IMG/VR virus record: IMGVR_UViG_3300049846_001597
Span: 8,313 to 72,312 of that record
DNA: 64,000 bases
Origin: a virus
Direction: 5' to 3' (one strand)
In this document: positions 20,874 through 36,717 of the stretch, piece after piece
Layout: the number at the start of each line of letters is the position of its first letter
Position numbering within the stretch: the stretch's first letter is position 1
Translations under genes and position numbers: made by a program
The notes under the pieces: model-generated
Told to the model about the DNA's origin: nothing
Database searches by the model: none
The model's input: only the letters and a program-made list of their open reading frames with translations

Positions 20874-21135
20874 TGGCGATCTCTCGTTGCGCGGCCTCAA
20901 CAGCTTCGCGCGTTTGATCTTCGATACGCTCGGTAGTTTGCGCCTCAGTGCTTGCCACTTCGTTTAAGGCCAATTTATCTTCGGCGGAGGCCCGCAGCGC
21001 ACGTTCGCTGTCCAGTGAACTTTGCAGCTTCTCGGCGTCGGCCTCCAGAAGCTGAAATCGCACCCACACTGACGCCACGATGGCGAGCACGAACATGCCG
21101 CTGATGACGCGCCAGTTGCCAAGCAACGCCAGCAT
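20791..21135 (-). CDS. Inner-membrane spanin (Rz-like)
   Basis: N-terminal TM plus coiled coil. Confidence 0.75.
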   Translation of the reverse strand: MLALLGNWRVISGMFVLAIVASVWVRFQLLEADAEKLQSSLDSERALRASAEDKLALNEVASTEAQTTERIEDQTREAVEAAQREIANAETAADIYAALVAGVDGVWADPETGR

Positions 21136-21413
21136 TATGAGAGCGCAACATTGTTGACGAGGCCGCCACCTGCGGCACGATCTCGTGCGACCTGCTCAAC
21201 GCCCCGGCTGACAAACGTGGTGACGACGAGGCCGAGATAGACGTTCACCGCCGTGTAATCGACGGCGATCTGATGCAGCGGCGCATAGACGAACGAGAAC
21301 ATGGCGACAATGAAGCCGCTCCAGCCGAGTGCGCGTCGCCAGCCTTTTTCGCTGAGGCGGTCCAGGCGATTGATGATGTGGTTGTAGATCGGAAGAAAAG
21401 CGGCGGCTTGCAT
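21135..21413 (-). CDS. Putative holin
   Basis: GWRRALGW plus two TM helices, upstream of the spanins. Confidence 0.65.
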   Translation of the reverse strand: MQAAAFLPIYNHIINRLDRLSEKGWRRALGWSGFIVAMFSFVYAPLHQIAVDYTAVNVYLGLVVTTFVSRGVEQVARDRAAGGGLVNNVALS

Positions 21414-21449
21414 GCGATAATGATGCGCGCAGCGCCACGCATGCGGGGC

Positions 21450-21935
21450 TCAGTTTTCTTCGCGCTCGCCGCCTTTCGGCACAAGGTCAATCGGATCGGT
21501 GGAGTTGCCGCCTGAATAGACATATTGCGCCGCGAACGTGAACGTATCTATGGCGGCCCCGCCGTCGCTGTCGTTGGTGACAGTGACGGTGCCGGTGTCG
21601 TAGTTGCCGGATGGGAACGTGTAGGCGACATAGACGGCAAAGTAGAGTTGGTCGCCCACGCTTGCGTTGACAGTGATTGGCGTCAGTGTCGGCGACTGCA
21701 CCGCAACACCGTTCTTAAACCACTGACCCTTGGCGGGGTTGCCGGATGTTGAGGTCCACGCCGCGCGCAGCGTAATGACGTTATCGATAGCGGCGAGCGT
21801 TTGCACGGAGGCCGAATTGTTTTCGTAGCCGGTGCTGGTGTCGGTGACGCTGATGTTGCCCCAATTGAGCGCGCTTGGGGTGAAGTCGGAGCCGCCGCCT
21901 GCGGCGCGGCTTTGCACAAAGATAATTGTCGCCAT
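21450..21935 (-). CDS. Virion fibre-associated protein
   Basis: Thr/Ser/Gly beta-rich, coupled to 21935..22951. Confidence 0.55.
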   Translation of the reverse strand: MATIIFVQSRAAGGGSDFTPSALNWGNISVTDTSTGYENNSASVQTLAAIDNVITLRAAWTSTSGNPAKGQWFKNGVAVQSPTLTPITVNASVGDQLYFAVYVAYTFPSGNYDTGTVTVTNDSDGGAAIDTFTFAAQYVYSGGNSTDPIDLVPKGGEREEN

Positions 21936-22951
21936 CAGCTGTTTCGCTTGTAACCGATGAGCGCAAGCTTGACGCCGGTTGCGCCAGAGGTGCCGACTTG
22001 ATCGAAATCCACGGTGATGAGCGAGTCATCCGTCACCGACACAACTGAGCTGGTGAGCACCGCTGCGGTCGCCGCTGTGGTTGACGTGGTTTCGTTGTTG
22101 TCAATTGTGAGCCGGGTGGAGAATACGGATGCAGAAGCGATATTGACGTCAAAGGTCAGGATGGAGCCGCCCGGCTGCGCTGTCGTCAGCGAGCCGCGCA
22201 CTTCGGTCAACTCAAACGCGCACGGCGCGCGGGTGGTGATCTTGGCGTTGCCGCTGGTGATGGCGGTGCTCTCGTCGCCGATGCCCATCTGATAGATGAA
22301 GCTCTCGAAAATCGCCTTGCCGGTGGCGGTCATGCCGCCGATCAAACGGGTGACGCCGCCGCCTTCGCCGATGAAACGCAGGATCATGCCCGCTTGCGTG
22401 GTGATGTTTGCGCCGCCGAGGAGGAGGTTAGCGGAATGTGCTATCGTCAGGACGCCATCGAACACCACGATGCGCTCTGCGCCTTGCGCCAACGTGATGG
22501 TGGAAATGTTTGTCGTGCCGGTGATGTGCAAGAAGTTGCCGGTGGCGGCGTCGAGATCGATAGCGGACGCGGACGCGATAGCTGCGCCTTCCGCCCAGCG
22601 CAGCGGCCCCGTCATCGCGCCGCCCGCTTTTTGCAAGTACCCCGAGAGGTCGCTGGCGACGAGGAAGCCCGCAGCTTTGTAGATTGGATTGATGGTGACG
22701 ATGGTTGAGCCGCCAGAATCCTTCAACACCGCCTTGTAGTCGAGGTCGTCTTTGAAGAAGGCTTTCGGAAAACGCCCGGCGCTGTTGGCGGTCAACACGC
22801 CTGCGGTTGAGGCGGGCGTCACCCAATCAATGTCGGTGTAGACCTCTTGCAGCACATCGGCGAGCGAATAGAAGGTGAGGGTGCAGCCGCTCTCCACTTC
22901 GCTGGAGGCGTCAATAACGGAGGCGAGGGCGTCGGCGACCGGACGATGCAT
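21935..22951 (-). CDS. Tail fibre / tail-attachment protein
   Basis: LTFY..VYTD...TANSAGRFP...YKAVLKD head-binding-like N-domain; GAAIASASAIDL..TGN..HITGT. Confidence 0.7.
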   Translation of the reverse strand: MHRPVADALASVIDASSEVESGCTLTFYSLADVLQEVYTDIDWVTPASTAGVLTANSAGRFPKAFFKDDLDYKAVLKDSGGSTIVTINPIYKAAGFLVASDLSGYLQKAGGAMTGPLRWAEGAAIASASAIDLDAATGNFLHITGTTNISTITLAQGAERIVVFDGVLTIAHSANLLLGGANITTQAGMILRFIGEGGGVTRLIGGMTATGKAIFESFIYQMGIGDESTAITSGNAKITTRAPCAFELTEVRGSLTTAQPGGSILTFDVNIASASVFSTRLTIDNNETTSTTAATAAVLTSSVVSVTDDSLITVDFDQVGTSGATGVKLALIGYKRNS

Positions 22952-22965
22952 GCCCAGATTATCGG

Positions 22966-24021
22966 CTACGCCGCCTCATCGCGGCCTTCCGCCGCCAGAG
23001 CCGCTTGCAGCGCCGCCAGGAGGCCAAGCAGCGGGCCTTTGCCACGGATCATCTCGCTCAGAGCTTGCTCGAAAGATTGGCCGCGCTGCTCAGCCGTTTC
23101 GCGAATGCGATCCACAAGATGCTTCAAGAACGGGTCTGCGCCAGATTGGACGCCCGTGATGTCGCCGCCGCCAACCCATGCTGCGGCCTGCGCCTGGGGG
23201 CCGGTGAGGCCGCGCTCTTTGCCGAGTGACTTGTAGTAATCGGCAAGCGCGCCATACTCGCTGTCTAAGCCTTTGCCGCCCCACCATGACGGCTGCTCTA
23301 GCGCCTCATCTATGTCGATGAGGCCCATGTGGTAAGCTTGGCGCGGATTGAATTGCTCGCCCTCAAACGTCACCGGATTTTTGCCGTTCTTCAAAAAACG
23401 CGGGTCGGCAGAAAAGATCGACGGCAGCGCCAGCGCGTGACTGTCTATGGTCACTGGTTCATGGTTGCCTGCAAGGTTCTCAGCGTAGCTTGCGGTCTTC
23501 GGTCCAGTGATCGGAGAGAAGCCGCCATCGTCCATGCGGTCCATCAGTTGCCGGTGGACGCCGCCTGCAAAGTGACCGTAGCCTTCAGGCGGGACCGGGC
23601 GCGACTCACCTGCGCGATCTGCGCCATAAAACAGTGAGGCGCGTTTGATCTGAGTCGCTACATCAGAGCGCGGACTGGTGGCGGCGTTGAAGTCGATAAA
23701 GCGCCGAAACGCCGTTTGTCCTTCCTCGGGGCCAAGCTCAGCGATGAACGCTGCTAGAAGCGGGCGCGTGTCGTACCATTGATCTGCGCCCATCTCGACG
23801 CCGCGATCAATAGTGTCGAGCATGCGGGAGCGAACGTTTGAATTGTTGATGAGGTCGAGCATGCGATCCGGCACGCGGCGCGGACTCGCATAAGCCAGCG
23901 CCTTTTGTTCGCCGAAGGCTTGGCCGGTGAGATTGTCGAGCAGCGCCGTGTCGGCGCCGCCATACTCAATAGCCTCACGCAACGCGGCTACGAGGCGCGG
24001 GAGGGAGGGGGCTTTAGGCAT
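22966..24021 (-). CDS. Polyvalent-protein-type domain (DUF7178/HhH-like), stand-alone
   Basis: QWYD...AATSP...PKTASYAENLAG..VTIDSHA...EY...QAQAAAW; family recalled from memory. Confidence 0.55.
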   Translation of the reverse strand: MPKAPSLPRLVAALREAIEYGGADTALLDNLTGQAFGEQKALAYASPRRVPDRMLDLINNSNVRSRMLDTIDRGVEMGADQWYDTRPLLAAFIAELGPEEGQTAFRRFIDFNAATSPRSDVATQIKRASLFYGADRAGESRPVPPEGYGHFAGGVHRQLMDRMDDGGFSPITGPKTASYAENLAGNHEPVTIDSHALALPSIFSADPRFLKNGKNPVTFEGEQFNPRQAYHMGLIDIDEALEQPSWWGGKGLDSEYGALADYYKSLGKERGLTGPQAQAAAWVGGGDITGVQSGADPFLKHLVDRIRETAEQRGQSFEQALSEMIRGKGPLLGLLAALQAALAAEGRDEAA

Positions 24022-24919
24022 CTTCGCTCGCTTTCGCGCCAACGCCTGCGCCCGCCAACGCGATCAGCAACATCGCGAGGCGCTTGCGCAATTCCTCAAG
24101 CGAGATTTTGCGACCGTCTACACCTTCGTTGTAAACCCATTCGGGCAGGAGGCCGACTTTCTGATCGGCATAAACCGTATCTTCCTGACTGGCGGTGCGG
24201 TTCTTTGCGCCGAAGGGGCCGTAATTCACCCACGAGTTTTGCCCGCGCGTTTCAGCGGTCAGCGCAGGCAGCGCCATATCGGAGAACATGCCGCGATGAT
24301 GGCGGAAGGCGTTCTCTTCGCCGCCAGCGCGGAAAGTCGCGCCAATCGGCGCGTGACCGAAGGCGTCATGCACGGCGCGGAACGCATCGTTTCGGGTAAA
24401 CGGCGCGCCGCCGAATGCGCGCCGCCCAAAACCGCGCACCGGCTCCAACAGCGGATTGAGCACCGCCTCATTGATCGAACCGAAACCGTCTTCGCTGGGA
24501 AAGACAGAAAGATGCTGGTTCTCGCGCAAATCCGCGAGCGCTGCTGCTGGCGTGTCGTAGGGGCTGCCGCCCTTCGGGATGAAGTCGAATTTGTAACCTT
24601 TGTCGAGCAACAGATCGAGCTGATCCAAGGTTTCGTCGCCCATCGCGCCCCAGGAAGCGCGCACCAGCGGGTCGGATGGATCGTTGACCATCGCGTCATA
24701 GGCGGCGGCGATGCGCGCGCCGCGTTCAGGATCAGCCGCAGCCCAATGCGTCGGGCGCTCGCCGCCGAGGCCCATGCCATCGGCGTAGCTGTCTGCAATC
24801 AAGCGTAGCCGTGCATTTGGACGCACATGCGTAGGCGAGCCAACGAGCGGCGCCTTGGCCGCCAGGACAGCTTCCAGCGCCGCCCTGAGGCTAGACCCGG
24901 AGGGACGCATACCAACCAC
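24014..24919 (-). CDS. Polyvalent-protein-type domain with zincin-like HDxxGH..E motif
   Basis: NDAFRAVHDAFGH...GEENAF..H...ETRGQNSWVN. Confidence 0.55.
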   Translation of the reverse strand: MVGMRPSGSSLRAALEAVLAAKAPLVGSPTHVRPNARLRLIADSYADGMGLGGERPTHWAAADPERGARIAAAYDAMVNDPSDPLVRASWGAMGDETLDQLDLLLDKGYKFDFIPKGGSPYDTPAAALADLRENQHLSVFPSEDGFGSINEAVLNPLLEPVRGFGRRAFGGAPFTRNDAFRAVHDAFGHAPIGATFRAGGEENAFRHHRGMFSDMALPALTAETRGQNSWVNYGPFGAKNRTASQEDTVYADQKVGLLPEWVYNEGVDGRKISLEELRKRLAMLLIALAGAGVGAKASEDA

Positions 24920-25962
24920 TAGGTCGCCTCGCTTTCCATCTCACGCTGAAGCGCTTGGCGCACTGCGCCCATCGAGAGGCCGAGGCCGCCCATAGCGGTG
25001 GCGATCTTGAAGAAATTGGCGAGACGCTGCACCTCGCTATTGTTGCGGCGGTCGCGATACTTGCCCCACAAGCCCTCGCCGCGCACCAGCGTCTTGGCGA
25101 GCGGCGTATCGAGTGCGGAGAAGGGGGCGGGGCCAGAGCGAATGTCGGCCAGCGACTTATAGGCGTTTTTCTCGGCCCAACGCGCCAGCGCCTCGCCAAG
25201 CTCGCGCTTGTAGACGCTCAACGCGGCGTGATCGCGGATAACTTCTGGGTTGCTGAGGGCGTAGTCGTAATACTGACGCATCTCAACCATCGCCGCTTTA
25301 TTGGCGGGCGTCGGGTCGCTCCAGTAGGCTTCCTCGGCGTCGGCAAGCATCCGCTTCAGCGCGGGCATCTTGTCGTCCACCGACTCGGTGACGATGCGGG
25401 AAGCGCGAGCGCTATCGATGGAGGTTCCCCACGGAACGCCTTTGCGATTGTACGCGACGGCGTGCTGGGCCTCATGCGCAAGCTGATAAGGCACTTGTTC
25501 GCCGGGCTCCAAGCGCGCACGCTCGGTGCCAAGGCGAATGTTGATGTCACCATTGTCGTACACCTCGGCTACGCCGCCGCCGCGTTGCTCTGGATCGAGA
25601 ATGAGCTGAATGCGGTCCCGTAAGCTCTTAGGCAGCGGCGCGCCCGTCACAAACGCATCGAGGTCGCCTGCATTGAAGCCTGCGAGATCGGCCTCCGACA
25701 TATCGGTTGTCATCCGCGCATCGGCCCACGAGCGCGGGCCTAGCCAGACGCCGGTATTGTCGAGGTCGGGCGACAGCGTGAGGCCGGTTTCATCCCAGAC
25801 GCGATCTTGGTCCCAGCCGCTTTCCAGCATGCTTTGCGCCCGCTGGGCGGCGCGCGAACGCGGGCTCACCGGATAAAGCATGCCTGCGGCGTTGGGATCG
25901 ACCGTGGTCGCCTCCAACAGCGCACGCAGGGCGCTCATAAGCGGACGAGGGGCGGCGGCCAC
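24919..25962 (-). CDS. LPD23-like domain plus HExxH metallopeptidase
   Basis: AQSMLESG...VWDETG; LAHEAQHAV; Y.R.LGE..AR. Confidence 0.6.
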   Translation of the reverse strand: MAAAPRPLMSALRALLEATTVDPNAAGMLYPVSPRSRAAQRAQSMLESGWDQDRVWDETGLTLSPDLDNTGVWLGPRSWADARMTTDMSEADLAGFNAGDLDAFVTGAPLPKSLRDRIQLILDPEQRGGGVAEVYDNGDINIRLGTERARLEPGEQVPYQLAHEAQHAVAYNRKGVPWGTSIDSARASRIVTESVDDKMPALKRMLADAEEAYWSDPTPANKAAMVEMRQYYDYALSNPEVIRDHAALSVYKRELGEALARWAEKNAYKSLADIRSGPAPFSALDTPLAKTLVRGEGLWGKYRDRRNNSEVQRLANFFKIATAMGGLGLSMGAVRQALQREMESEAT

Positions 25963-26472
25963 TTACGCGCCTCCAGTTGGCGGCGCAGGCTCGACATAGA
26001 GCGCGCCAATGACCCTGCGCCCGGCTGCTGTAACCACCGATACATCGGTCGAGGCGAGGTAGGTCTGCGACCCGCCCGCGTTCCCGGCGTCGTCGTAATA
26101 GACGTAATAGGTCTGGCCTCGGGTCACGCCGGTCACACTCCCAGCCGCCAGTGTAGCAGCGGCGGTCGAGCGGGTGTGCTCGGCCACGGTGATGGTGGCG
26201 GAGCTGGCGGAGGTGGCCTCGTAATCCAAAATCTGGCTCTCAGCCGGGGTGTGATAGTAGCCGGTGGTCATGCCAAACATCGCCGCGCGCAGCATCGCTT
26301 CCGCTTCAAACGCAGTCGCGCGCGCTTCGCGCACATGATCTTCGCGCTGGCCGCCGAGGCGGCGGATGATGTCTGTAAACAGACGCACGACATGGCGCTC
26401 AAATTTGCCGCCTCTATCCACCACGCGAATAGCGGCGTTCGGGATGTCGAGGTTGATGAGGGGGTTACTCAC
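25963..26472 (-). CDS. Virion tail-associated protein
   Basis: TITVAEHTR...GSVTG....YYVYYDD; GTG start overlaps the upstream stop. Confidence 0.55.
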   Translation of the reverse strand: MSNPLINLDIPNAAIRVVDRGGKFERHVVRLFTDIIRRLGGQREDHVREARATAFEAEAMLRAAMFGMTTGYYHTPAESQILDYEATSASSATITVAEHTRSTAAATLAAGSVTGVTRGQTYYVYYDDAGNAGGSQTYLASTDVSVVTAAGRRVIGALYVEPAPPTGGA

Positions 26473-26635
26473 TGGCGCGCTCGGCAGCATAGGCGGCGAG
26501 GCCTGCGGGTGCGCCAGCGGAAATCAGGCTCGCAAGATCAAAAACTCTCTCTACGCCGCGCGGCAACGGCACTTCGGGCGCAAGCCGCCCAAGCATATCG
26601 CGCAAGGCGACGCGGAGGAGATCACTGCGGCTCAT
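26465..26635 (-). CDS. 56-aa peptide missing from the ORF track
   Basis: MSRSDLLRVALRDMLGRLAPEVPLPRGVERVFDLASLISAGAPAGLAAYAAERASE; TAATG coupling upstream and GTGAGTAA coupling downstream. Confidence 0.7.
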   Translation of the reverse strand: MSRSDLLRVALRDMLGRLAPEVPLPRGVERVFDLASLISAGAPAGLAAYAAERASE

Positions 26636-27255
26636 TAGTAACGAAACGCTCCGAACTTAGCGGGTTTAAGCTTCACTGTTTTCGCCGCGCGCGGCTGCTT
26701 TAGAAGCGCGCGCTCGGTGCGCGCCTGCTCAATCGTTGTCTCCATCACGCCAGATGGCTCGCGTGTGTGGCTGCGCAAAATCTCTACGCTGTCAGCGACA
26801 CGATCAGGAAACACGACCCTGTGGGTGGCGCGGTTTCGCGACACAAGCGGGTCATCGAGGATATTGACGAAATCGACGCCATCGTACCCCTCGCGGCGGG
26901 CGGCGGATGTTTCTCTCAACATCCAGTCGCGCTGCTTGCCGAGGCTGCCGCGCTGCTTTTCCAGCGCCGGAACATCTACTGCTTTGAACCGGCCACGGAT
27001 GCGCGCCTCGATCACGCGCCCATCGTTTTTATCGCGCGGCGTGTCGCTGTATTTGAGCGCCAAGCGACGGAAGTTGTCGCCTTGCTGACGCGAATTGGTG
27101 AAGAAGACGCCAGCAACAGACCCCGTTCCCATGCGCTTGTCAGCGAGGTTGGGGTCGAAGCTAGTGAACTCCGTATCGCCCGTGCCGTGATACCACGGGC
27201 CGCCATCATCAAGCGCGTCAGCCAGTGCGCGGCGCAGGGGGGCGCTGTCGCTCAT
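26635..27255 (-). CDS. ADP-ribosyltransferase-fold protein (ART-PolyVal-like)
   Basis: WYHGT..F.SFD...GVFFT...GRVIEA...GYDGV...VVF. Confidence 0.7.
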   Translation of the reverse strand: MSDSAPLRRALADALDDGGPWYHGTGDTEFTSFDPNLADKRMGTGSVAGVFFTNSRQQGDNFRRLALKYSDTPRDKNDGRVIEARIRGRFKAVDVPALEKQRGSLGKQRDWMLRETSAARREGYDGVDFVNILDDPLVSRNRATHRVVFPDRVADSVEILRSHTREPSGVMETTIEQARTERALLKQPRAAKTVKLKPAKFGAFRY

Positions 27256-28706
27256 GTCGGGTCTTCGTTGATCCAGACGCCAGAGAAGGCGAAGTTGATG
27301 GGGTCGGTGATGCGGATTTTGAGAATGACGCCATCTGCGGCGCGCGCCATACCCATACGCCAGAGCGTCGGACGCTCATCAAAAGCCCCGCGCTTGCCGA
27401 GCTGCACACGCCGCTCGACCCCGCGTTCGGAGAGACTGTCACGCGAGCCGCCATCAGTGTAGAACGTGAGGGTCGCCACCGGATCGTAGCCGCGCTGGCT
27501 CTCCGCCAGAGGCACATCCGTGCATTTCAAGTCGAGCGTGACGGAGTTAATGATGGTGCGCGCAGCCACCGGCACATGCAACGTCACAATGCGCTCGTGC
27601 GGGTCGCCATCGTCGCTATAGACGTTTTCTTCCCAGCTCCACACCACGTCGCTCTCATCGGAGGCGACAACGTGTTTTCCAGCGGCGTGGAAGAACGTGT
27701 AATAGGTCGGCGCATAGCGCATAGCGACGCCTGGGTCGCTCCAGCTGGTGCGCTCGCTCCACGTTTGCGTCAGCGTGTCGTAAGCATAAGCTTTGCCAAT
27801 CGGGAAGCGCAGCACCCAGGTAAGGTGCGAGCCTTGTGCGTAAGCAAAACACTGCAGCGCCTGCGCTTCGGTGTCGGAGAGGGCGGCCAGCGCCATTTCG
27901 ATCTCGCGGTTCGACACGCGCACAGGGGTGTAGCCATTGAGCATGTAGACGACACGATCATCGGCCACCCACATAGCGGAGCTGTCGAGCTTAGCAATGG
28001 CGTCGCGACCGACGATGCCGCGATCTATGACGATGGTGAGGATGTCGAAGGCGTCGGCGTCGTCGCCGCCCATAGCGCGCCAGACTTGAGTGGAGTTTGC
28101 GCCAAAGTGCCAGAGATCGCCGCCGATCACGATCTGGCTGCGGATTTCATCCGGTAGACGAGCTGATGAGGCAAACCCTGACGGGGGCCAATCAAGCGGG
28201 TTACCGACGCTTGACCAATCGAACTGATCTGATCCTTCGGCGTTGGTGATTGCGCGATCCGCGAGCGACGCAAGTGTGTAAGCATTGAGTGGGAAGTCTT
28301 CGTCGGTGCAAATTGAGAGGTCGGTCCCGTCATATTTGTAGAGGGAGCCGCCCGCGAGCAGCACCAAGTTGGCGCCGACGCTATCAAACAACACCGTGCC
28401 GGTTGCGCCCTGAATGGGGCCAAGCGCGGTCGCCGTCCAGCTGCTGGTGACGCGATAGAGTTGTGAGCCAGCCGCAACGAAGAGGTCGCCGTCGAGTACG
28501 CCAGGACGCGAGAAGACGCCGCGCACGAGGTCGCCCGCAGAGGGCGTCACCCGCTCTTGGCGGCCCATGCACGGCGCGATCAGATATTTGCTGCGCTTGG
28601 CGTTGCCGAGCGGCTGCGGCTCGACAACGCAGTTGCGCAGCACCAAAGGCGTACAACCCTTCGTGCTGCGGTCGTCAGAAGAGGGGGCGACCGGAAAAAA
28701 TGGCAC
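27252..28706 (-). CDS. Tail hub / packaged DNA stabilisation protein (P22 gp10-like)
   Basis: Beta-propeller-like; FASSARLPD, LWHFG..STQVW, GYTPVRVS..IE, YAYDTLTQTW.ER. Confidence 0.8.
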   Translation of the reverse strand: MPFFPVAPSSDDRSTKGCTPLVLRNCVVEPQPLGNAKRSKYLIAPCMGRQERVTPSAGDLVRGVFSRPGVLDGDLFVAAGSQLYRVTSSWTATALGPIQGATGTVLFDSVGANLVLLAGGSLYKYDGTDLSICTDEDFPLNAYTLASLADRAITNAEGSDQFDWSSVGNPLDWPPSGFASSARLPDEIRSQIVIGGDLWHFGANSTQVWRAMGGDDADAFDILTIVIDRGIVGRDAIAKLDSSAMWVADDRVVYMLNGYTPVRVSNREIEMALAALSDTEAQALQCFAYAQGSHLTWVLRFPIGKAYAYDTLTQTWSERTSWSDPGVAMRYAPTYYTFFHAAGKHVVASDESDVVWSWEENVYSDDGDPHERIVTLHVPVAARTIINSVTLDLKCTDVPLAESQRGYDPVATLTFYTDGGSRDSLSERGVERRVQLGKRGAFDERPTLWRMGMARAADGVILKIRITDPINFAFSGVWINEDPT

Positions 28707-28712
28707 GGCTTA

Positions 28713-28811
28713 TTATGCCGGAGCGCTGCATAGTGCGATGATGAGCGCCAGACCGGCGAGCATCAGCCACTTCCACGGAACCAGCTGATGCCACGGATAC
28801 CTAGTACCCAT
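28713..28811 (-). CDS. 32-aa single-TM peptide
   Basis: MGTRYPWHQLVPWKWLMLAGLALIIALCSAPA fills the gap after the ejection genes. Confidence 0.45.
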   Translation of the reverse strand: MGTRYPWHQLVPWKWLMLAGLALIIALCSAPA

Positions 28812-30075
28812 AAGCATCCATCAGCTCACGCTCGTAGTCGTTTTCGCGGCGTGCAAGAATTGGGGTGTCACCGAAGAAAGCAGCGTTGCTGAAGCCTTCG
28901 CCCACGGCTTCGGGACCGGCGCGACCGAGGCGGCCAGTCTCGCGATGCGAGAGGAGGCGAATAAGCTCCTGCGTGAGCTTGGAATTGGCTGGCGCATTAA
29001 GCGCGTCGAGGACACCTTGGTTTTCGGCGACATCAATGCTCGTGAGCGGACGGAAGTTGCCGCGTCCGCGCCGAATGATGTTTGAGGCAGCCGAACCGTA
29101 ATTGTGCATCAGCACGTCGCGCACCAATTCGAGATTGTTGTCGCCGGTTGTGTTGCGCAGCCGCGCCGCCTGCGCCGCGCCTTGTGGCAAGTCGCCGCCA
29201 GCCGCCTGCCATTGCGCGCGATAAGACGGCGGCGCATTGGGCATTTCGAGCGCCTCTATCACGCGCGCGCCCTCAGGGGCGCGATTGATGCGTTGTGCGA
29301 CGCCAGCGATGTCGTCGCCTGCCGCGCCCATTGCGCGGTCCAGTGCATTGACGGTGTGACCGTTCACGCGCGGCGCGCCGGGCGTACGACCAAGCCCTAT
29401 TTTCATGCCGATAGCGTGAGCCGGAATGCGCGCTAGTGCGTTGATGGCGGGGCCGAGCAACGCAGCGCTCCCGCCTGAAAACGCTGCGTTGAGCGGCATA
29501 TTGGCGAGCCTATTATCGAAGCCTCGCTGACCCGGCAGCATGCCGCCTTCGGCGGAGCCGTAGCCATAAAGTGCGCCCATTGGCGCGCCAACCAACCCCG
29601 CCGTCAACGCTTGCCGACGCCAGCCCGCGAACCCACGTTGCGCGCCGCGCGACAGAAAGTTGGCAATTGGGCGACCTAGCCGCCCAGCTTGCGCCGCGCG
29701 CCCTAACGCTGCGCCAGGAAACACAAAGCTTCCCGCTGCGCCAATAAAGGCGCCAGCGTTCGTCCACCCCTCTCGTGTTGCGCGGTAGTGAGCAAGATCA
29801 TTGCGCGCGCGACGGACGCCATCGCGGAAACCGCTTTGGAAGTCGCCGCCAGACGCCATCGAGAGGAGGCCATTAAGTCCGCCCATAGCTTCGTCGCCTA
29901 AACCGAAGCTAAAGGCATCCATCGCGCCAGCGCGAACAGCGTGCGCGCGATCAACCCATTCGGAGCGACGGGGGGTAGGTGGGCCGCCGTCATCAAGCCA
30001 CTGCGTTTGCGCAGGTCCGCGCGCTGGCGGCGCAACCTGCGGTGGCTGCTGTTGATCCAACCATTCCGTTGTCAT
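28801..30075 (-). CDS. Putative ejection (internal virion) protein
   Basis: DAFSFGLGDE motif and Gly/Ala hydrophobic helices; third of three coupled genes. Confidence 0.65.
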   Translation of the reverse strand: MTTEWLDQQQPPQVAPPARGPAQTQWLDDGGPPTPRRSEWVDRAHAVRAGAMDAFSFGLGDEAMGGLNGLLSMASGGDFQSGFRDGVRRARNDLAHYRATREGWTNAGAFIGAAGSFVFPGAALGRAAQAGRLGRPIANFLSRGAQRGFAGWRRQALTAGLVGAPMGALYGYGSAEGGMLPGQRGFDNRLANMPLNAAFSGGSAALLGPAINALARIPAHAIGMKIGLGRTPGAPRVNGHTVNALDRAMGAAGDDIAGVAQRINRAPEGARVIEALEMPNAPPSYRAQWQAAGGDLPQGAAQAARLRNTTGDNNLELVRDVLMHNYGSAASNIIRRGRGNFRPLTSIDVAENQGVLDALNAPANSKLTQELIRLLSHRETGRLGRAGPEAVGEGFSNAAFFGDTPILARRENDYERELMDAYGY

Positions 30076-32165
30076 CGGCTGCGCGCCCCGTTCGCGCGCA
30101 CGACGCCCCGGCGACCGTCGCGGGTGCGGAAATAGATGTCACGCCCGCTGCGATTGGCGCGCGCCTGCATATCGCGTTCTTCGCGGCTGCCTGCCCATGC
30201 ATCGGCATTGACCGGCACCTCAACCGGGTAGCCCTCAACCGCGCCTTGCTCTTGTGCGTCGCCGTGACGAACGAAGGCCCAATGCGGTTCCGATGATTGC
30301 GCATCGAAACGGAAGAAATCGCCGGTTTGCGGAACCTGTACTTCACGACCGTCTTGCGGCGCATCCGCCAAAATCGCCCAATTGGCTTGCGTGTATGGAC
30401 GCAGCGCCGTGCGTTCGACCTCTGACCAGCGGCGACCTTGCGCATCAACGCCGCGCTGAAGCGAGCCCGCTTCGTAGATGAACTGACGACGCGCGGAAGA
30501 TAGCGCGCGCGAACCGAGGAGGGCGGCGCGTGATTTACGCAAGAAATTGATCGCAGACTCCAGCGTCCATTGGCCGGAAACGATGCCGCGCAAAGCCGCC
30601 TGACGTTCGCCTTCTGAGATCGGCTGCAAGCCTTGCAGTGCTTGCAGCAACAGCGGCCACGTATTAGATTGAATGTCTTCCAGTAGCGCTTGGCGGCCCG
30701 TTGAGCCAGCAAGGCGCGCCAAATCTGTGTTCATGTTATCCGGCAGGATAGTGCCGTTTTCGCTATTACGGGCGAGCGACATAAAAGCCGCCTCAAGCGA
30801 GTCAAGGCTGTAAAGCGCCTGTTCACGCTGATCTTCCGCCGCGAAATTTCGTTCGTAAATTTGAATTTCACCCGGCGTCGGCTCCGCGTACCCAGGCGAC
30901 TGACCGGCGCGGGCGCGCTGCCCTTCCCGATTGCGGTAGTTCTCATCGAGGCGCTGCGCGTAGGTCAGCGTCATCTGCTCAAGCGCATCGAGTTCGCTGT
31001 CTTGGATGCCGTCGCGACCAAGGTTTTGCAGCATCGGCATGATGTCATCGGCGAGCAGCGGTTGACCGTTGGTGTCATAAGCATACGGCGTGTTTTGCAG
31101 CCAATGCATCGCCACCGGCAGACGCTGCTGCTCGGGGATGCGACGCAACGCCGTCACCATCTGTTGCGAGAACTGTAAGCGCGCGCCGAAAAGATCGACA
31201 GCGGTGGCGCGCTCATCGTCCATCAGCGCCGAGATGCGCTCTAGGCCATCCAGGTCGCCCATCGACATGGCTTCCTCGCGCAATCCAGCGAGGATGCTCA
31301 TGTTTTGAGTGAGCTGCGGCGGAGCCGCCTGCATGATAGCTTGCTCTAAACCTTGGAAGCCACCATCAGCAGGCGGGCCGGTGGGTGCGGGTGCGGCTGC
31401 GGCGGCAGGCGTCGGCCCGCCTGTAATGGGGCCGGTCGGCGCGACGGCTTGCGCTTCCAGGGGTCGAGCGTTGTCCAGCAGTATGCGCGCAGCATCGTCG
31501 CCGTTATATGTGCTTGGGCCAGCTTCTGGCTCATAAGGGTTTGCATACGGCGTGGGGTCGGGCTGAGCGGCGCCCGGTGACGCCGTGTTCACGCCGGAGC
31601 GCGCCCGCAAAGCCGCCGCAGAGGGCGTGTCAAAGACCATGCCGTCGCCGCGTGCGCCGCCCGGCTGGTAAGCCTCATTGAACTGCATTAGCCCGAGGCG
31701 CTCCGTCCATGACGGCGCAAGCGGCGTCTGCTGAATATCGGTTTGCGGCGGCGGCGCAGTCACGACTTGCGGCTGCGCCGAGGGTTGCGGTTGCTGCGGC
31801 AAGCCGGGGCCACCCGGTTGGCCGGGTGCGATTTGCATCTCGGGGCCAGAGTAGGGCGTGGCCGGGACTTGCGGCAGCTGCGGGGCCTGCGGGGCAGGCG
31901 CCGTCTTCAGCAACGCATTGCGCTCATTATCCGCGCGCCAGTCATAGCGGTTCGGCAGGAACACATTCTGGCGCGCCCAGGCATAATGATCGGGCTCGTT
32001 GACGTCCAAGAAGCTGTTGAGGCTGTCTTCCAGTTGACGCGGGTCGCGCGAAGCGAGCGCGTTGCGCATGCTGCGCATGGCGCGACCCTGGTTGGCGCGT
32101 CGTTGACGCCGCTCGCCGTGGTCGTAACCTTCGCGGAAGGCGCGGCCATAATCATAGACTGCCAT
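30072..32165 (-). CDS. Putative ejection (internal virion) protein
   Basis: Pro/Gln-rich disordered N-half, helical C-half; position. Confidence 0.6.
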   Translation of the reverse strand: MAVYDYGRAFREGYDHGERRQRRANQGRAMRSMRNALASRDPRQLEDSLNSFLDVNEPDHYAWARQNVFLPNRYDWRADNERNALLKTAPAPQAPQLPQVPATPYSGPEMQIAPGQPGGPGLPQQPQPSAQPQVVTAPPPQTDIQQTPLAPSWTERLGLMQFNEAYQPGGARGDGMVFDTPSAAALRARSGVNTASPGAAQPDPTPYANPYEPEAGPSTYNGDDAARILLDNARPLEAQAVAPTGPITGGPTPAAAAAPAPTGPPADGGFQGLEQAIMQAAPPQLTQNMSILAGLREEAMSMGDLDGLERISALMDDERATAVDLFGARLQFSQQMVTALRRIPEQQRLPVAMHWLQNTPYAYDTNGQPLLADDIMPMLQNLGRDGIQDSELDALEQMTLTYAQRLDENYRNREGQRARAGQSPGYAEPTPGEIQIYERNFAAEDQREQALYSLDSLEAAFMSLARNSENGTILPDNMNTDLARLAGSTGRQALLEDIQSNTWPLLLQALQGLQPISEGERQAALRGIVSGQWTLESAINFLRKSRAALLGSRALSSARRQFIYEAGSLQRGVDAQGRRWSEVERTALRPYTQANWAILADAPQDGREVQVPQTGDFFRFDAQSSEPHWAFVRHGDAQEQGAVEGYPVEVPVNADAWAGSREERDMQARANRSGRDIYFRTRDGRRGVVRANGARSR

Positions 32166-32938
32166 TAGATGCGCCCAGGTTTAGGCGTGACGCCCTTGGT
32201 GGACGTGACGGTTTGCGTGGGGCCGCCGCCAAAGAAGTTGCCGACCGCCTTGCGGGTGTTATTCCAATTGAAGCCGCCATTGGCGATCTTGGCGCTGATG
32301 CCGCCCAGCGCATTCGAGATCGCCATGCCGCCAGTGGCGGCGGCGTCCTGCAAGCCTTGGCCGCGTTGCAGCGCAATTTGACTAAGCGCGTTGCCCTGAT
32401 TGGCGAAAGCATTGGCGGCCTGACTACCGACACCCATTGCCGCGTTAGCGATGCCGGTGCGTGCGGCGTCGCCGCGATCCACGTAGCCCTTGAGGCCAGT
32501 CAGGTGCGCTTCACGGCCAGCCATCGCCAACTCGTAACCTTGTTGGCCCGCCGCGCGCAGCGCCTTGCCTGAATTGATTGCGCCGCCTTTGCCAAGTGCG
32601 GCGTTGGTGGAAACCAGCGCGTTGTGCGCTTTGGCCGTGTTGTAGTCGGCTTCGTTCTTGTAGAAGGAGCCGTTGTAAGCCGTATTGTACGCGCCCGCTT
32701 GCGAGGGATCGATGCCGAGCGCGCCACGCACCAAATTGTTGGGCGTGGTGCTATCGTTCACCATCGGCTGCATTTGCGCGGTGGCGCGGTCGTAGCCGAG
32801 ATTGAGTTGTTCGATTTGCTTGTCGGTGGCGTACTTCTGCGCATCCGCCGCCATTGCAGCAGAGTCTTTGACGGCGTTGGCTTGGGTCTTGGCGTTAGCC
32901 GCGCCGAAGATGCCCTGGATTACGTCCCCGATGCACAT
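32165..32938 (-). CDS. Putative DNA-transfer/ejection protein (P22 gp7-like)
   Basis: Ala/Gly/Gln-rich; GAANAKTQANA..QKYA; SGKALRA. Confidence 0.7.
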   Translation of the reverse strand: MCIGDVIQGIFGAANAKTQANAVKDSAAMAADAQKYATDKQIEQLNLGYDRATAQMQPMVNDSTTPNNLVRGALGIDPSQAGAYNTAYNGSFYKNEADYNTAKAHNALVSTNAALGKGGAINSGKALRAAGQQGYELAMAGREAHLTGLKGYVDRGDAARTGIANAAMGVGSQAANAFANQGNALSQIALQRGQGLQDAAATGGMAISNALGGISAKIANGGFNWNNTRKAVGNFFGGGPTQTVTSTKGVTPKPGRI

Positions 32939-33383
32939 AAGAAAACAGTCTAAAGGGGTGGCCGTTTATGCTGGCTTCGCCTAGCCAGCTGAAGCCGCAG
33001 GCCTCAATAAAGCGATGATGCATGACGTTACGCTTGTCGGAGGCATTGAGCAGGCAACCCCATTTGCACCCCCACGCACGCACCCAACGCGGCACATGCT
33101 TGAGGGTGAAGTAGCGGGCGCGGCTGACATCATCCGCGCAGAGCATCCAGGGACTTGCGCCGTAAGCGGTTTGCTTCGCGCCAAGAATGGCCAGCACCCG
33201 GCCCGTGGCCACTTCAACCATTGCGCGCGCGTCGCCGGGTTTGGCGAGGTCATCGGTCAGGCGCGCGTAGATGTCGCTCGCGCCAGCCGCTTCTGCTTCG
33301 CGCGCATCTTCAGGCCGCAGCCGCAAAAGCAGATTGACGACATCTTCTTGGTTGGCGCGCCGGAAGGTGAACTTAGCCGCCAA
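32895..33383 (-). CDS. GNAT-fold virion assembly protein (T7 gp13-like)
   Basis: LRPEDAREA...PWML...LLN..D.RN....RF....GF. Confidence 0.75.
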   Translation of the reverse strand: MAAKFTFRRANQEDVVNLLLRLRPEDAREAEAAGASDIYARLTDDLAKPGDARAMVEVATGRVLAILGAKQTAYGASPWMLCADDVSRARYFTLKHVPRWVRAWGCKWGCLLNASDKRNVMHHRFIEACGFSWLGEASINGHPFRLFSYVHRGRNPGHLRRG

Positions 33384-33882
33384 GCTGCTGGAGCTGCTGC
33401 TGGAGCTGCTGGATCATCATGTCGATTTGCTGGGCGCGCGGATCGTCTTCTGGCAGAGATTGGCGCATCTGCGTCAAACGCTCTAGTTGCTCCATGAGCT
33501 GCATCGGGCGTTGCATGACGGTCTGCTGAGGGCGCTGCTCGCGCAAGGCGCGCTCAATCGCCACGCGCAGAGCGCGTGCGCCGCCGCGTGCGCCGCCTGC
33601 GAGCGTACCACCCGCCACACCTAAGACGCCACCCGTCGCGCCGCCCGCGATGGCGTTGCCCATCGTGTCGGTTTCGGAGCCGCCGTTCATGGCGTTGACA
33701 TCAGAGTAGCCCGCGCCCATCGCTGCGCCTAAGCCGACGCCGCCTGCGGCTAAGCCGCGCCCGTTGCGACCCATGAACTCTTCTGCGCCGCCGCGCACGC
33801 CGCGCGTGGTTTGTTCACCAATATCGCCCATTGCTTCACGCAGGAAGCGCAGGAACGTTGAGGATGGAACTGTATCAGCCAT
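33373..33882 (-). CDS. Glycine-zipper protein with Gln-rich tail
   Basis: GxxxG helices GLAAGGVGLGAAMGAG and GGATGGVLGVAGG. Confidence 0.6.
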   Translation of the reverse strand: MADTVPSSTFLRFLREAMGDIGEQTTRGVRGGAEEFMGRNGRGLAAGGVGLGAAMGAGYSDVNAMNGGSETDTMGNAIAGGATGGVLGVAGGTLAGGARGGARALRVAIERALREQRPQQTVMQRPMQLMEQLERLTQMRQSLPEDDPRAQQIDMMIQQLQQQLQQLGG

Positions 33883-35447
33883 TAGGCACCCATTTCACGC
33901 ATGATAGCGCCACGACGCGCCTCGCGGTCTGCAACCGTTGAAATCGCTGCGCCGACCCCGCCCGTTACGAGATAGGGGAGGACAATCGAGAGGGCGTCAG
34001 GCTTCCGCGCCTTTTTGCCTAACCCCGCCTCGCGCAGCGCCGCGTAGACGGTTTGCTCGATGCTGTTGTCGGTTGAGTCGCGGAAGGATGGGTCGCGGCG
34101 CAATTCAGCAATCAGACGCCGCGCGTCGGTCATGCCGCCAGCAATCAGACGCCGCGCTTGATTTTTGGTTGAGAGCTTGTTTCCGCGCCACGGGCGCTGC
34201 GCAAACAGACGCACGCGATCTGGCGTGACATTCCATAGCTTCGCAAGGATGGCCACCGCAGGTTCGCCCGCCGCAACAGCGCGGTCAGCGTACTTAAGCA
34301 GCCGATCCAACTGGACGCCGATAATATTTGCGCCTTCACCCTCATCGTCTCGCAACGATGCTGAGATGTCGGCGCGCTTCGGGTAGAAGCCGCGCTCGTT
34401 CATTGTCGTGGCTTCGTTGACAATATCGGCTTCGTTATACTGCCCGCGTGTTAGCTTGAAGACTTTTTTGACCCCAATCGCCTCGCCAAGTTGCGCCCGC
34501 TCAGCCCGATCTTGCGCTCGCCCTTGTGCGCGCGCGTAACGCTGTTGCGCGGCCTCCGAGTGAGAGGCGCGCTTGGCTTCGATACGCGCAAGTCTGGCGC
34601 GCGCGGCTTCCAGCGCCGCCGCATCGGACGGCGGTCGGTTGTCAAATGCAGGACTTCTGGGTCGATCTGGGATCGGGATGCCCAAGCGCTTGCGCGCATA
34701 CGTCATCGCACCTTTTAGCGCCTCCATCGTCGGAAGCTCGGTGGCGTTGAGCACCTGCTCCATTGTATAAACAGGCCGCCCATCGGGGTGGCGGGCGCTA
34801 TACATGATGATCGCGCGCGCTTTGTTGGCCTTACCTTTCAGCGAAGGATAGCGGTCGAGTAAGACCTTAAAGTCTTCGGGATTGGAGGGTAGCGGCTCCG
34901 CCTGTCGCCCAAGGCCAGCCGCACGCCGCATGCGGCGCGGATCAAACGCAGCGCCGCCAAACAGCACGGAGCCCGCCGAATCTTCATCGAGGTCTTGGCG
35001 CGCAGAGTAGGGGCCAAGATACTCATCGAACATCTCGTCCGATCCGCGCTGGCCTGACTCAAGCACGTCCGCCATGCGAACGGGCGGCAAACCCTTGAGG
35101 GTGTTGACGTCATCCAGCATGCGGCTGGTGTGCTGCGCGAGCGGGCGCGTGGCGTCAGCGACCCGCCGCTGGACGCGCGACATCGATTGTGCTTCCGGGT
35201 CACGGATGTGCATCGCAGGCGAGCGGATGTCAGCTGGCAACGAAGGGCGCAGCGCATTGCGGGCGAGACGCGACAAAACTTGCCGCGCGCCATAGCCGCC
35301 CATCGCTCCGATCATTGCGCCGCCAAGCGCGCCGCTTGCATCGTTCTCGCCAAGCGCGACGCCACCGGTTGCGCCAGCGAGGCCGCCAAGAAGAGGAAAC
35401 GCCGCCTCATCGATTGCGCGGAGGAGCGCGGAACGCAGCGGGTTCAT
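33882..35447 (-). CDS. Glycine-zipper plus multiple HTH-like segments
   Basis: N-terminal GGLAGATGG/GGAMIGAMGG; YTMEQVLNATELPT..., LAKLWNVTPDRV; C-terminal hydrophobic helix. Confidence 0.6.
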   Translation of the reverse strand: MNPLRSALLRAIDEAAFPLLGGLAGATGGVALGENDASGALGGAMIGAMGGYGARQVLSRLARNALRPSLPADIRSPAMHIRDPEAQSMSRVQRRVADATRPLAQHTSRMLDDVNTLKGLPPVRMADVLESGQRGSDEMFDEYLGPYSARQDLDEDSAGSVLFGGAAFDPRRMRRAAGLGRQAEPLPSNPEDFKVLLDRYPSLKGKANKARAIIMYSARHPDGRPVYTMEQVLNATELPTMEALKGAMTYARKRLGIPIPDRPRSPAFDNRPPSDAAALEAARARLARIEAKRASHSEAAQQRYARAQGRAQDRAERAQLGEAIGVKKVFKLTRGQYNEADIVNEATTMNERGFYPKRADISASLRDDEGEGANIIGVQLDRLLKYADRAVAAGEPAVAILAKLWNVTPDRVRLFAQRPWRGNKLSTKNQARRLIAGGMTDARRLIAELRRDPSFRDSTDNSIEQTVYAALREAGLGKKARKPDALSIVLPYLVTGGVGAAISTVADREARRGAIMREMGA

Positions 35448-36043
35448 TGGCGACCTCCACGATTCCGCATCTGCCGCAGCATCGCTTCCGCGATGAGGCG
35501 GGTTTCCTCTTCACCAAGCCGCTCAGCGCGCGCAATACGACGACGAACATCAGCGTGATGCGGCGCACGCTCCATGCGCTCAAGAGTGCGGGCGGCATTA
35601 AAGCTGTCGCCTTTGCCGATGGCCCACGCCGCCTCCGCGCGCGCCGCCTCTTCGCGTAAGCCGATGCGGCGCAAATGGCGGATGTATTTCTGAAAAGCTT
35701 TGACGCTCTCTTTTGCACCCATGCGCAAAAACGAGCTGCGACCAGCCGCCATCCCGCTTAGCGCGCCCAAGGCGGCGGCCCCGCCCACTGTCGCGCCAGC
35801 AAAATTGCGGAAGCCTTCATGCTCGCCCTCAGTCAAATCATAATCAGACAAAGCGCTAACGCCGCCTGCGATGGCGTAGGGGTAAAGCCCAACGGGCAAT
35901 CCGAGCATGCCTCCAACTTGTGCGCCGCCCGCGAGCGCGCCTTCGGCCCGGTCTAGCGCGCCAGACGCCGTGCGTTGCACGCCGCGCATGGCGGCGCGGG
36001 CGCCGTCTTGCAACGCCAATTGGAGGGCGGCCCGCAGACTCAT
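35444..36043 (-). CDS. Glycine-zipper protein
   Basis: GALAGGAQVGGMLG and GATVGGAAALGALSG. Confidence 0.6.
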   Translation of the reverse strand: MSLRAALQLALQDGARAAMRGVQRTASGALDRAEGALAGGAQVGGMLGLPVGLYPYAIAGGVSALSDYDLTEGEHEGFRNFAGATVGGAAALGALSGMAAGRSSFLRMGAKESVKAFQKYIRHLRRIGLREEAARAEAAWAIGKGDSFNAARTLERMERAPHHADVRRRIARAERLGEEETRLIAEAMLRQMRNRGGRQ

Positions 36044-36717
36044 CGCATCACATTCAAATCGACGTCGCCCCAGCGGTCGAAGCCCATGACTTGCTCGTAG
36101 AGGGTTTGGGCGCGCTCACGGATGCGCTGGCTGTTGGTGTCGATCAGCTGATAATCTTCACACAGACGCGCCGCGAGGCAGATGACAATCGCCTCAGCAA
36201 ACTCCTCAGGGACGTCGATCTCGTCGTTGCCGGAATCGACAGTCTCGATCACCCGCTCGTAGCCAACTTTGAGCGTGTAGGTTCCGCTGCTAAAGGAGGG
36301 GATGGGCCACAGTGTTACTGTTGTTGAGGTGCGCTGCTTGTCGAGCACGTAAGCGACAGGTTGGCCGGTATTGGCTTTGAAGATAAACCGATCCCAATCC
36401 TGACGATCCCATTCGGTGAGCGGCAGCCGCTCCTCGCCATCCTCCAGCCAGCGCACATTGTAGACGAGGCGCGGGCGCGGGTTGAGCGTGTAGGTCTGCG
36501 TCCCAGAGACAAGCGTCACCGTTTGCTCGGCGCGCGTCCACAGATTGGGGCCTTCCGTTGACCACGACTTCAACATCTCGTTGAAGACATCGAGGCCGTT
36601 GCTCAGCTCATCAGCTGACGCCTCAAAACCTTGGCCGAGGACGCCAAGCTTCTGCAACGCGCGCGACACGTAATGGGCGGCGGTTTTTTGATAATCGATG
36701 ACGCCAGAGAGGGCCAC
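36040..36717 (-). CDS. Head-to-tail adaptor (gp4-like)
   Basis: RALQKLGV...GLDVFNEMLKSW...G.P..Y...LWPIP...PEEF.EAI..LA.RL. Confidence 0.8.
   Translation of the reverse strand: MALSGVIDYQKTAAHYVSRALQKLGVLGQGFEASADELSNGLDVFNEMLKSWSTEGPNLWTRAEQTVTLVSGTQTYTLNPRPRLVYNVRWLEDGEERLPLTEWDRQDWDRFIFKANTGQPVAYVLDKQRTSTTVTLWPIPSFSSGTYTLKVGYERVIETVDSGNDEIDVPEEFAEAIVICLAARLCEDYQLIDTNSQRIRERAQTLYEQVMGFDRWGDVDLNVMR

Follow-up and report, generated by a model that had tools for sequence, protein, structure and literature searches.

Why are protein modules that other phages carry as domains of one giant polypeptide encoded as a row of separate small genes? This question is raised by a 64,000-nucleotide stretch of viral DNA, i.e. 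bases 8313-72312 of the 72,312-base IMG/VR virus record IMGVR_UViG_3300049846_001597 (hereafter "the window"), in which five open reading frames (ORFs), termed E, D, C, B and A in their order along the minus strand, lie between the gene of a P22 gp10-like tail hub and that of a fiber-like protein (Table 1). An earlier sequence-only reading of this DNA had likened four of these ORFs to domains that are usually fused in giant polyvalent proteins of phages and plasmids, and had proposed that they constitute a swappable anti-defense or host-takeover payload of separate, tagged genes in place of one large polyprotein. The four ORFs are real, with 206-358 amino acids (aa) each, and a fifth, D, which had not been mentioned, lies between E and C. 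The placement between tail hub and tail fiber was seen correctly as well: the P22 gp10-type (Hc3) profile matches the hub over essentially its full length, and the C-terminal ~120 aa of the fiber-like protein are 39-45% identical to C-terminal domains of proteins annotated as tail fiber or virion structural in nine phage records. As each of the ORFs A-E comprises 175-358 aa with one, at most two, recognizable modules, they are solo versions and not polyvalent proteins, which have 2-15 effector or LPD domains per polypeptide. A large polyprotein is indeed absent from the record: the longest ORF of the window has 1,075 aa, and that of the 8.4 kilobases (kb) outside it 692 aa. We consider it probable, with moderate confidence, that these genes form a cluster in a late operon and encode, as solo proteins, modules which are elsewhere fused into large polyvalent or internal-virion proteins, and that their products are packaged, ejected and early-acting.

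Solo and fused forms of the modules

By comparison of sequences, B clearly is a module of a deconstructed polyvalent protein. Internal segments of phage giants of 2,000-5,000 aa share 41-47% identity with it, and some of these giants are known as polyvalent proteins from their annotation or from Pfam matches. The core of B (aa ~38-270) aligns with 47% identity to aa 770-1000 of a 2,986-aa protein, gp16 of Octadecabacter Antarctic BD virus 1, in which an ART-PolyVal domain (aa 1023-1155, E = 2.6e-15) directly follows the B segment and LPD22 is also present, and whose gene lies between the internal-virion genes and the tailspike gene of a podovirus. In Planktothrix phage Pag-Yong1, the same core has a counterpart with 41% identity in aa 776-1090 of the 2,772-aa "large polyvalent protein", which contains LPD38 and a weak ART-PolyVal match. 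Of three further giants from IMG/VR, one contains LPD38, and in the other two nothing was found at E ≤ 0.001 above the Pfam cut-off; altogether, LPD domains are present in three and ART-PolyVal in two (one weak) of the five scanned giants. No similarity to A, C or D was found in the Octadecabacter and Pag-Yong1 giants. B relatives are encoded in 375 of 402 candidate IMG/VR stretches, and the best 80 loci yielded 55 closed ORFs around the B match, of which 47 have at least 1,445 aa (up to 5,168 aa), six 651-985 aa, and only two at most 450 aa (both 318 aa). In a second set of genome and metagenome contigs, seeded from the window's own clade, 94 closed ORFs divide into 25 of at most 450 aa, 15 of 451-1,000 aa and 54 of more than 1,000 aa. 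From these sizes in both sets, fusion is the majority state of B, and solo forms are not rare.

The neighboring gene A encodes a DUF7178 protein, as had been predicted, with 28.1 bits against PF23802 (cut-off 27) over aa 87-205, and it also matches phrog_3842 (1.9e-7). DUF7178 is present in 27 of the 30 nearest Atlas clusters of A, which are all viral and, as far as shown, have 310-468 aa; other examples are a 504-aa protein of Microcystis phage MJing1 and the 1,203-aa gp38 of Roseobacter phage CRP-212. At five loci, B and DUF7178 are found in one ORF of 809-1,156 aa, and whenever they are fused, DUF7178 is C-terminal to B, which is the same order as that of the genes in the window. As adjacent genes, the two are found in the window and at three further loci (L026, L033 and L132). 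Judging from this gene order, the B-DUF7178 pair appears to move as a unit between head and tail modules. L026 (9833-12195) and L033 (IMG/VR) represent another podovirus type, in which solo B and DUF7178 lie between portal/fiber and scaffold/capsid genes and thus away from the hub gene. A prediction of a B-A complex gave a score of 0.00 and thus no verdict, and is not counted either way.

What kind of protein is B? It has no Pfam match but matches phrog_3170 (1e-16), and its HDAFGH motif is followed 11 residues later by GEEN, with full or almost full conservation of both. H184, D185, H189, E201, H208, E223 and R225 are invariant in 35 B-family sequences. The AlphaFold2 model of B is confident, with a predicted local distance difference test (pLDDT) value of 85 and a predicted template modeling score of 0.82, and in BFVD it has 22 fold matches at E ≤ 0.001, including proteins annotated as LPD, ART-PolyVal or head morphogenesis (MuF). 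PF08014 (MATCAP/TMCP, formerly DUF1704), whose members have in common an HExxxH motif and, behind it, the metal-ligand motif EE(G) (PMC10499314), is precomputed for 5 of 119 listed B homologues, and an HExxxH peptidase clade has been described in polyvalent proteins by Iyer, Burroughs, Anand, de Souza and Aravind (2017; PMC5512222). Because of the likeness of HDxxxH plus GEEN to these motifs, the few PF08014 matches and the existence of the HExxxH polyvalent clade, the zincin-like assignment that had been proposed for B is plausible but not established, and the signs of a MATCAP-like gluzincin are weak. In the public gene call, B lacks about 39 N-terminal residues and has 262 aa; as G27, P29, P34 and L38 are conserved in ten orthologues, the longer form of 301 aa is favored. 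B-domain ORFs also occur in five large isolate-genome contigs (Sphingomonas, Polynucleobacter, Paraburkholderia and Halomonas), which presumably hold prophages, and the best of these matches is in Sphingomonas desiccabilis (49%). These contigs hint weakly at hosts of the wider B family, but not at the host of the phage in the window.

C contains the predicted HExxH motif as HEAQH, and H163, E164, H167 and E210 are invariant in all three family members. Zincin-like metallopeptidases (MPTases) of polyvalent proteins have an HExxH helix, a three-stranded sheet and a Glu in the next conserved helix, and the order of secondary structures in the model of C fits this arrangement, in a model that is itself unreliable. 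Because of its pLDDT of 42.6, this AlphaFold2 model, built from three sequences, was dropped from the fold search. No zincin-like profile or PDB match was found for C. Atlas matches, which count as leads only, include LPD23 clusters (features 0.88, TM 0.49) and several zincin families (TM ~0.3). The C family is very rare, with two true homologues among 1.84 billion representatives. A protein of 1,375 aa that matched C in six stretches (E = 2.6e-11) was rejected as a false match, as it is a surface protein with DUF11/DUF7927 repeats. For D, no Pfam, PHROG, PDB or phage tblastn match was found, and PDB sequence and profile searches with A, B, C, D and E gave nothing below E = 0.05.

The ART-PolyVal-like character that had been suggested for E is best seen in its family, which comprises eight homologues, all of them solo proteins of 202-241 aa with 55-71% identity. 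PF18760 is precomputed for five of the eight, and six of the nine family members match it at E ≤ 0.01, with a best value of 4e-8. H23 (in WYHGT), D125 and D135 are invariant across the nine members; the active site given for ART-PolyVal consists of H in strand 1, Y in strand 2 and D in strand 5 (PMC5512222). The E-family alignment found no relative in IMG/VR, metagenome contigs or genome contigs, a narrow E-family hidden Markov model gave one weak match only among the giants, and tblastn searches with E, C and D against phages gave no match.

Several of these comparisons weigh against the reading of the locus as a set of dispersed polyvalent-protein modules. For B, a Foldseek search of the model against the PDB gave no match at E ≤ 0.001 (best E = 0.7), and no MATCAP structure was among the 50 rows shown; only one of 35 B relatives touches PF08014 (E = 0.016), and the residue after the first His of the motif is Asp and not Glu. 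The solo forms of B counted above are not rare. The window protein E on its own stays below the Pfam cut-off of PF18760 (E = 1.7e-4, 22.8 bits versus 31.2), and a Phe replaces the expected Tyr in all nine family members, which makes the activity of E uncertain; the same position is Phe in the strong ART-PolyVal domain of the Octadecabacter gp16. The LPD23 part of what had been predicted for C did not reach the threshold either: PF18838 matches aa 37-60 with E = 0.007 and 16.5 bits, and one of the two C homologues matches at the same N-terminal place with E = 0.018 and 15.2 bits, both below the cut-off of 27, while the other homologue has no match. C was found in no giant, although the profile search for longer C-family proteins is weak evidence. 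DUF7178 is mostly a solo protein of 310-470 aa and not a domain of giant proteins, and in cultured phages it is encoded just after the portal gene and not next to a fiber gene. The notion that these domains are usually fused in giants holds for B, and ART-PolyVal is present in giants that contain B; it does not hold for DUF7178 and found no support for C. The profile and structure searches that had been called for gave a DUF7178 match above cut-off and BFVD matches for B, but no PDB fold for B.

Could the separate ORFs simply be the debris of one giant gene that decayed or was mis-assembled, with frameshifts or assembly errors? C, B and A do lie in three frames with overlapping ends, and the source is a metagenome assembly. 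However, Logan contigs of a sequencing run that may be the source cover 21900-28800, with all junctions, without a single difference or gap (two other runs hold short identical pieces, and no RNA run was among the listed holders), and same-length solo orthologues exist for E (8), C (2) and B (9), which together rule out that the ORFs are frameshift fragments. Shine-Dalgarno-like GGAGG or GAGG sequences are located 7 nt before the starts of C and B, full-length solo orthologues of each ORF occur elsewhere, and the B-flanking regions in giants have no similarity to C or A. The debris explanation is thus close to refuted, and we regard it as extremely improbable.

The only relative that could be compared, and the one true relative, is a metagenome contig of 10.6 kb (L136), which argues against debris as well, since B and C have exchanged places and are still intact: its order is D-B-C-A-fiber, versus D-C-B-A in the window. 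The identities to the window genes are 63% for D' (over aa 66-174 of D, to the first ORF of the contig), 58-63% for B', 39% for C', 45% for A', 66% for the fiber and 53% for p161', the counterpart of the 161-aa protein that is encoded next after the fiber-like gene. The comparison of synteny thus gave a permuted order of B and C but no variable cargo in this one relative. What speaks for a swappable payload is the change in order, as the single comparable relative has the same gene content.

Conserved terminal helices

The sequence-only reading had described the genes as tagged. A, B, C and E, as well as p521 and p199, two proteins without Pfam or PHROG matches that are encoded further upstream, start with a similar helix, by eye a variant of (S/P)-L-R-x-A-L-x-x-A-(L/I), and at the C-termini of A, B, C and p521, acidic residues follow a short hydrophobic stretch rich in Gly, Ala and Leu. 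In the model of B, the N-terminal helix comprises aa 8-22 and the C-terminal hydrophobic helix aa 274-290; C has an N-terminal ALRALL helix and a Gly-rich C-terminal tail, and E has an N-terminal PLRRAL helix motif and a basic C-terminal tail that ends with R-Y. Both the N-terminal region and the hydrophobic tail recur in each of the nine closest solo homologues of B; G27 and P29, which the shorter database gene call leaves out, are among the invariant residues. The Gly-rich tail of C is kept in all three C-family proteins, and the hydrophobic tail and acidic end of A recur in most of nine aligned DUF7178 relatives, whether fused or not. A comparable N-terminal helix is found in five or six of the nine E-family members, and B', C' and A' of L136 start with comparable (L/I/V)-R-rich helices. 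As the termini are kept in solo relatives of B, C and A, they are conserved features of this clade.

In C-terminal hydropathy, B ranks third, A sixth and p521 tenth among 103 ORFs, with C outside the top 16, and aa 484-506 of p521 represent the only 19-aa window with a mean hydropathy of at least 1.5 besides one in the fiber-like protein. The tail of E is of another kind: it is variable and Lys/Arg/Pro-rich in all nine family members (26635-26700 in the window) and closes in about eight of nine with an aromatic after a basic residue (RY, RF, KY..RF), with I or F..I where the very end differs. It recalls the essential basic C-terminus of T7 gp16 that is mentioned in PMC8954989. An LR.AL motif is also present at residues 7-11 of a 163-aa ORF without Pfam match upstream of the terminase genes, where it may be due to chance, unless the motif set extends beyond the block. 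No protease gene was recognized in profile scans of the window proteins, and neither a prohead protease nor a cleavage site was identified.

Hypothetically, the termini could be addressing signals. If so, the LR.AL-type helix and the C-terminal hydrophobic/acidic helix might together form a portable address, by which unrelated modules are loaded and ejected separately, so that the array can be reordered and its members exchanged, but we regard this extension as rather doubtful. The pattern LR.[AL]L occurs 12 times in the 103 ORFs, six times within the first 25 residues (binomial P = 0.0018), but this enrichment is post hoc, as the pattern was chosen after looking. An unsupervised all-against-all comparison of N-terminal 30-mers gave top scores of 35-26, compared with 33-26 for internal 30-mers, and thus no excess. 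With the exception of p521, the tails are too short for canonical membrane helices; the giants contain neither terminal motif; and 24 of 25 other solo B forms in the second set end right after the domain, for which reason the hydrophobic tail of B is specific to this clade. These points add to those already listed against the overall reading. As for the "tags", it is hence their conservation in orthologues that stands, whereas within the window they do not rise above chance in the unsupervised test.

Packaging, ejection and alternative roles

How might the products of such genes be used? A-E sit among virion and late structural genes, as phage-type polyvalent proteins do. A run of small and medium proteins, including internal-virion and ejection genes, is encoded just upstream of the hub, and this stretch is recognized as an ejection-protein block because of the phrog_308 match and the weak phrog_598 match (Table 1). 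The genes are tightly arranged, with the hub stop overlapping the E start, the C start directly following the D stop, a 1-nt overlap of the C stop and the B start, and an overlap also of B and A. Promoter and terminator scans gave no signal above shuffled controls. The position in the ejection block, the coupling to the hub gene, the homology to modules at internal-virion positions, the MuF-fused fold relatives, the published proposal of a deployment in the capsid for solo proteins encoded next to virion genes (PMC5512222) and the finding of a 2,811-aa LPD-bearing protein in the virion proteome of phage phi24B (as described in bioRxiv 10.64898/2026.04.10.717836) together argue for internal, ejected virion proteins. 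Virion packaging and a host-directed function of A, B, C and E are inferences. A, B, C and E would be loaded into the capsid together with the neighboring internal and ejection proteins, and would be ejected through the tail at infection for an early action on the host. E might ADP-ribosylate host proteins, as T4 Alt does, and B, a putative metallohydrolase with HDxxxH and EE, and C might cleave host or co-ejected proteins. A may work together with B, as it is always C-terminal to B when fused. In the weakest step of this mechanism, the N-terminal amphipathic helix and the C-terminal hydrophobic helix with its acidic end would contribute to incorporation, ejection or membrane association.

What alternatives exist for such a host-directed delivery? 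The proteins could in principle be packaged and ejected, but serve DNA delivery as part of a trans-envelope ejectosome, in which the metallohydrolases would open the wall or envelope and the tails would enter membranes. This would agree with the location of A-E in one block with internal-virion and ejection genes, with the gene order in the Octadecabacter virus, where gp16, a protein with both B and ART, takes the place of T7 gp16 ahead of the tailspike, and with the DNA-delivery role that the phi24B authors propose for their virion-borne polyvalent protein (in the corresponding part of bioRxiv 10.64898/2026.04.10.717836). Moreover, T7- and P22-type ejection proteins have C-terminal membrane segments and essential basic C-termini (as stated in PMC8954989 for these proteins), and the tail of E is basic and conserved. 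On the other hand, an ADP-ribosyltransferase-like domain has no obvious part in envelope penetration, peptidoglycan hydrolases are usually of other types than HExxH/HExxxH zincins, the tails do not reach the length of membrane helices, and six other candidate internal or ejection proteins are already encoded upstream in the record. We regard a role in DNA delivery as unlikely.

It is also conceivable that the proteins are expressed late and never enter the particle, and that they function as assembly or maturation factors, such as virion-processing peptidases and a late ART, or represent moron-type cargo. Most solo B proteins elsewhere have no terminal tails, and Iyer et al., in discussing the peptidases, see those of polyvalent proteins as mainly processing their own polypeptide (PMC5512222). 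However, there is little for a self-processing peptidase to do when the domains are encoded separately, B and ART relatives are embedded in proteins at internal-virion positions, B-like folds are fused to MuF, and translational coupling to the hub gene is tight. A non-virion role thus appears quite improbable, more so than the ejectosome, and the packaging and early, host-directed action of the modules is the interpretation that we prefer.

Genomic context and relation to known systems

The record is 86% complete according to CheckV, so that about 14% of the genome may be absent. The G+C content of the window is ~61% from end to end, and all its structural genes are on the minus strand. The hub is 25-30% identical to "packaged DNA stabilization protein" genes in 42 phage records; as a single-protein query, it found no relative in IMG/VR, and a megablast search with 21000-33000 against phages gave no match. 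The window comes from a freshwater phage; to judge by these genes, it is an uncultured podovirus with a P22-type neck and distant from the cultured phages. The position of the 1,075-aa spike-like gene between the terminase and portal genes is unusual for a tailspike. The portal protein has long N- and C-terminal parts without any match; effector fusions to portal domains are mentioned by Iyer et al. (PMC5512222). Of the three ORFs that follow the Gp80 gene, the first two have similar ...F(A/G)WG C-terminal ends, and the region suggests that a second fiber set is encoded between the portal and capsid genes.

Table 1. Features of the window, in descending order of position (the three ORFs of one row in the order of transcription)
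Feature	Position	Strand	Match or remark
163-aa ORF	62143-62634	-	upstream of terminase genes
Large terminase	59815-61317	-	
Pectate-lyase-like spike, 1,075 aa	56269-59496	-	PF12708, 8e-18; endosialidase-type N-terminal stretch
Portal, 994 aa	52922-55906	-	portal PHROGs match aa 337-509 only; no Pfam match
143-aa protein	52479-52910	-	directly after portal; Pfam Gp80 "Podophage GP4 fiber I protein", 2.1e-26
Three ORFs after the Gp80 protein	51612-52478, 50715-51608, 49947-50711	-	
Major capsid protein	40742-41659	-	
tRNA-Met (CAT)	40203-40278	-	inside structural region, just downstream of major capsid gene
Head-tail adaptor	36040-36717	-	Ad3 type
p521 and p199	33882-36043	-	between head-tail adaptor and internal virion proteins
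Internal virion protein, 162 aa, and 257-aa neighbor	32165-33383	-	phrog_308, 1.4e-23; phrog_598 "DNA ejection", E = 0.0029 (weak)
Tail hub, P22 gp10-like, 484 aa	27252-28706	-	phrog_578 "head closure Hc3", 1e-58, aa 6-482
E, 206 aa	26635-27255	-	ART-PolyVal-type
D, 175 aa	25963-26490	-	between E and C; without terminal motifs
C, 347 aa	24919-25962	-	HExxH zincin-like
B, 301 aa	24014-24919	-	HDxxGH domain
A, 358 aa	22966-24042	-	DUF7178
Fiber-like protein, 338 aa	21935-22951	-	no family match

The closest known systems are the polyvalent and solo proteins described by Iyer et al. (PMC5512222), who propose that the giants were pieced together from solo forms. Shared with these systems are ART-PolyVal, zincin-like peptidases including an HExxxH form and LPD domains, as well as the location next to virion genes and the occurrence of small polyvalent-type ORFs near the primary locus. 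The locus described here differs in that there are at most one or two domains per polypeptide and no giant ORF in the record, that the B-A pair can be traced from fused to split, and that this clade has conserved terminal helices which the giants lack. Likewise, the Octadecabacter gp16 and the Pag-Yong1 protein both hold the B domain, but they are single giant ORFs without LR.AL motif or hydrophobic C-tail. With MATCAP, B shares the succession of the two motifs, as HDAFGH and GEEN, but the catalytic Glu is replaced by Asp. The gp47 of phi24B, a T=9 podovirus, is also LPD-bearing, has a metallopeptidase domain and is a proposed ejection protein (bioRxiv 10.64898/2026.04.10.717836, in its account of gp47), but it is a single protein of 2,811 aa, and it is likened to the window by description and not by sequence.

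The internal proteins of phage T4 are small and separate and are addressed by a short N-terminal targeting sequence, which directs incorporation and is cut off by the prohead protease; the proteins of the window resemble them in the shared N-terminal helix motif only. T4 Alt is, like the presumed role of E, an ADP-ribosyltransferase that is carried in the head and injected with the DNA, but Alt belongs to the R-S-E clade and ART-PolyVal to the H-Y-D clade (both in PMC5512222, where Alt and the ART clades are treated). In addition, T4 is a myovirus, in contrast to the podovirus with P22-type neck in the window.

Solo polyvalent-type domains beside virion genes are thus already known from Iyer et al. 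(PMC5512222, in its treatment of solo versions), and the B domain or a peptidase clade like C may already be included in their domain tables or alignments. New are the traceable series of solo, two-domain and giant forms of the B module, the four-gene array, whose order is permuted in a relative, and the clade-specific terminal helices. In the literature searched, no mention of DUF7178 was found, nor, in that on polyvalent and ejected virion proteins, any description of a split array of this kind.

The prevailing idea is that polyvalent proteins arose from solo modules, which selection for a common delivery at infection brought together. The locus provides a series for this process, with B solo, B fused to DUF7178, and B inside giants of 2,000-5,000 aa, and this lineage keeps four modules as separate, translationally coupled genes within an ejection-protein block. 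If the reading of the termini as tags is true, a polyvalent protein can be viewed as a cassette array, the members of which can be reordered, as in the B/C swap, or exchanged without rebuilding a giant ORF, and the phage would have a natural podovirus cargo-tag system; if the terminal helices are loading signals, they would offer a handle for the packaging of foreign proteins into podovirus capsids. Should particles prove to contain the modules, these small proteins of one domain each would lend themselves to expression and assays far better than the giants do. This would open a route to the biochemistry of the widespread B domain, which has 375 relatives in IMG/VR and no solved fold, and of DUF7178 and ART-PolyVal.

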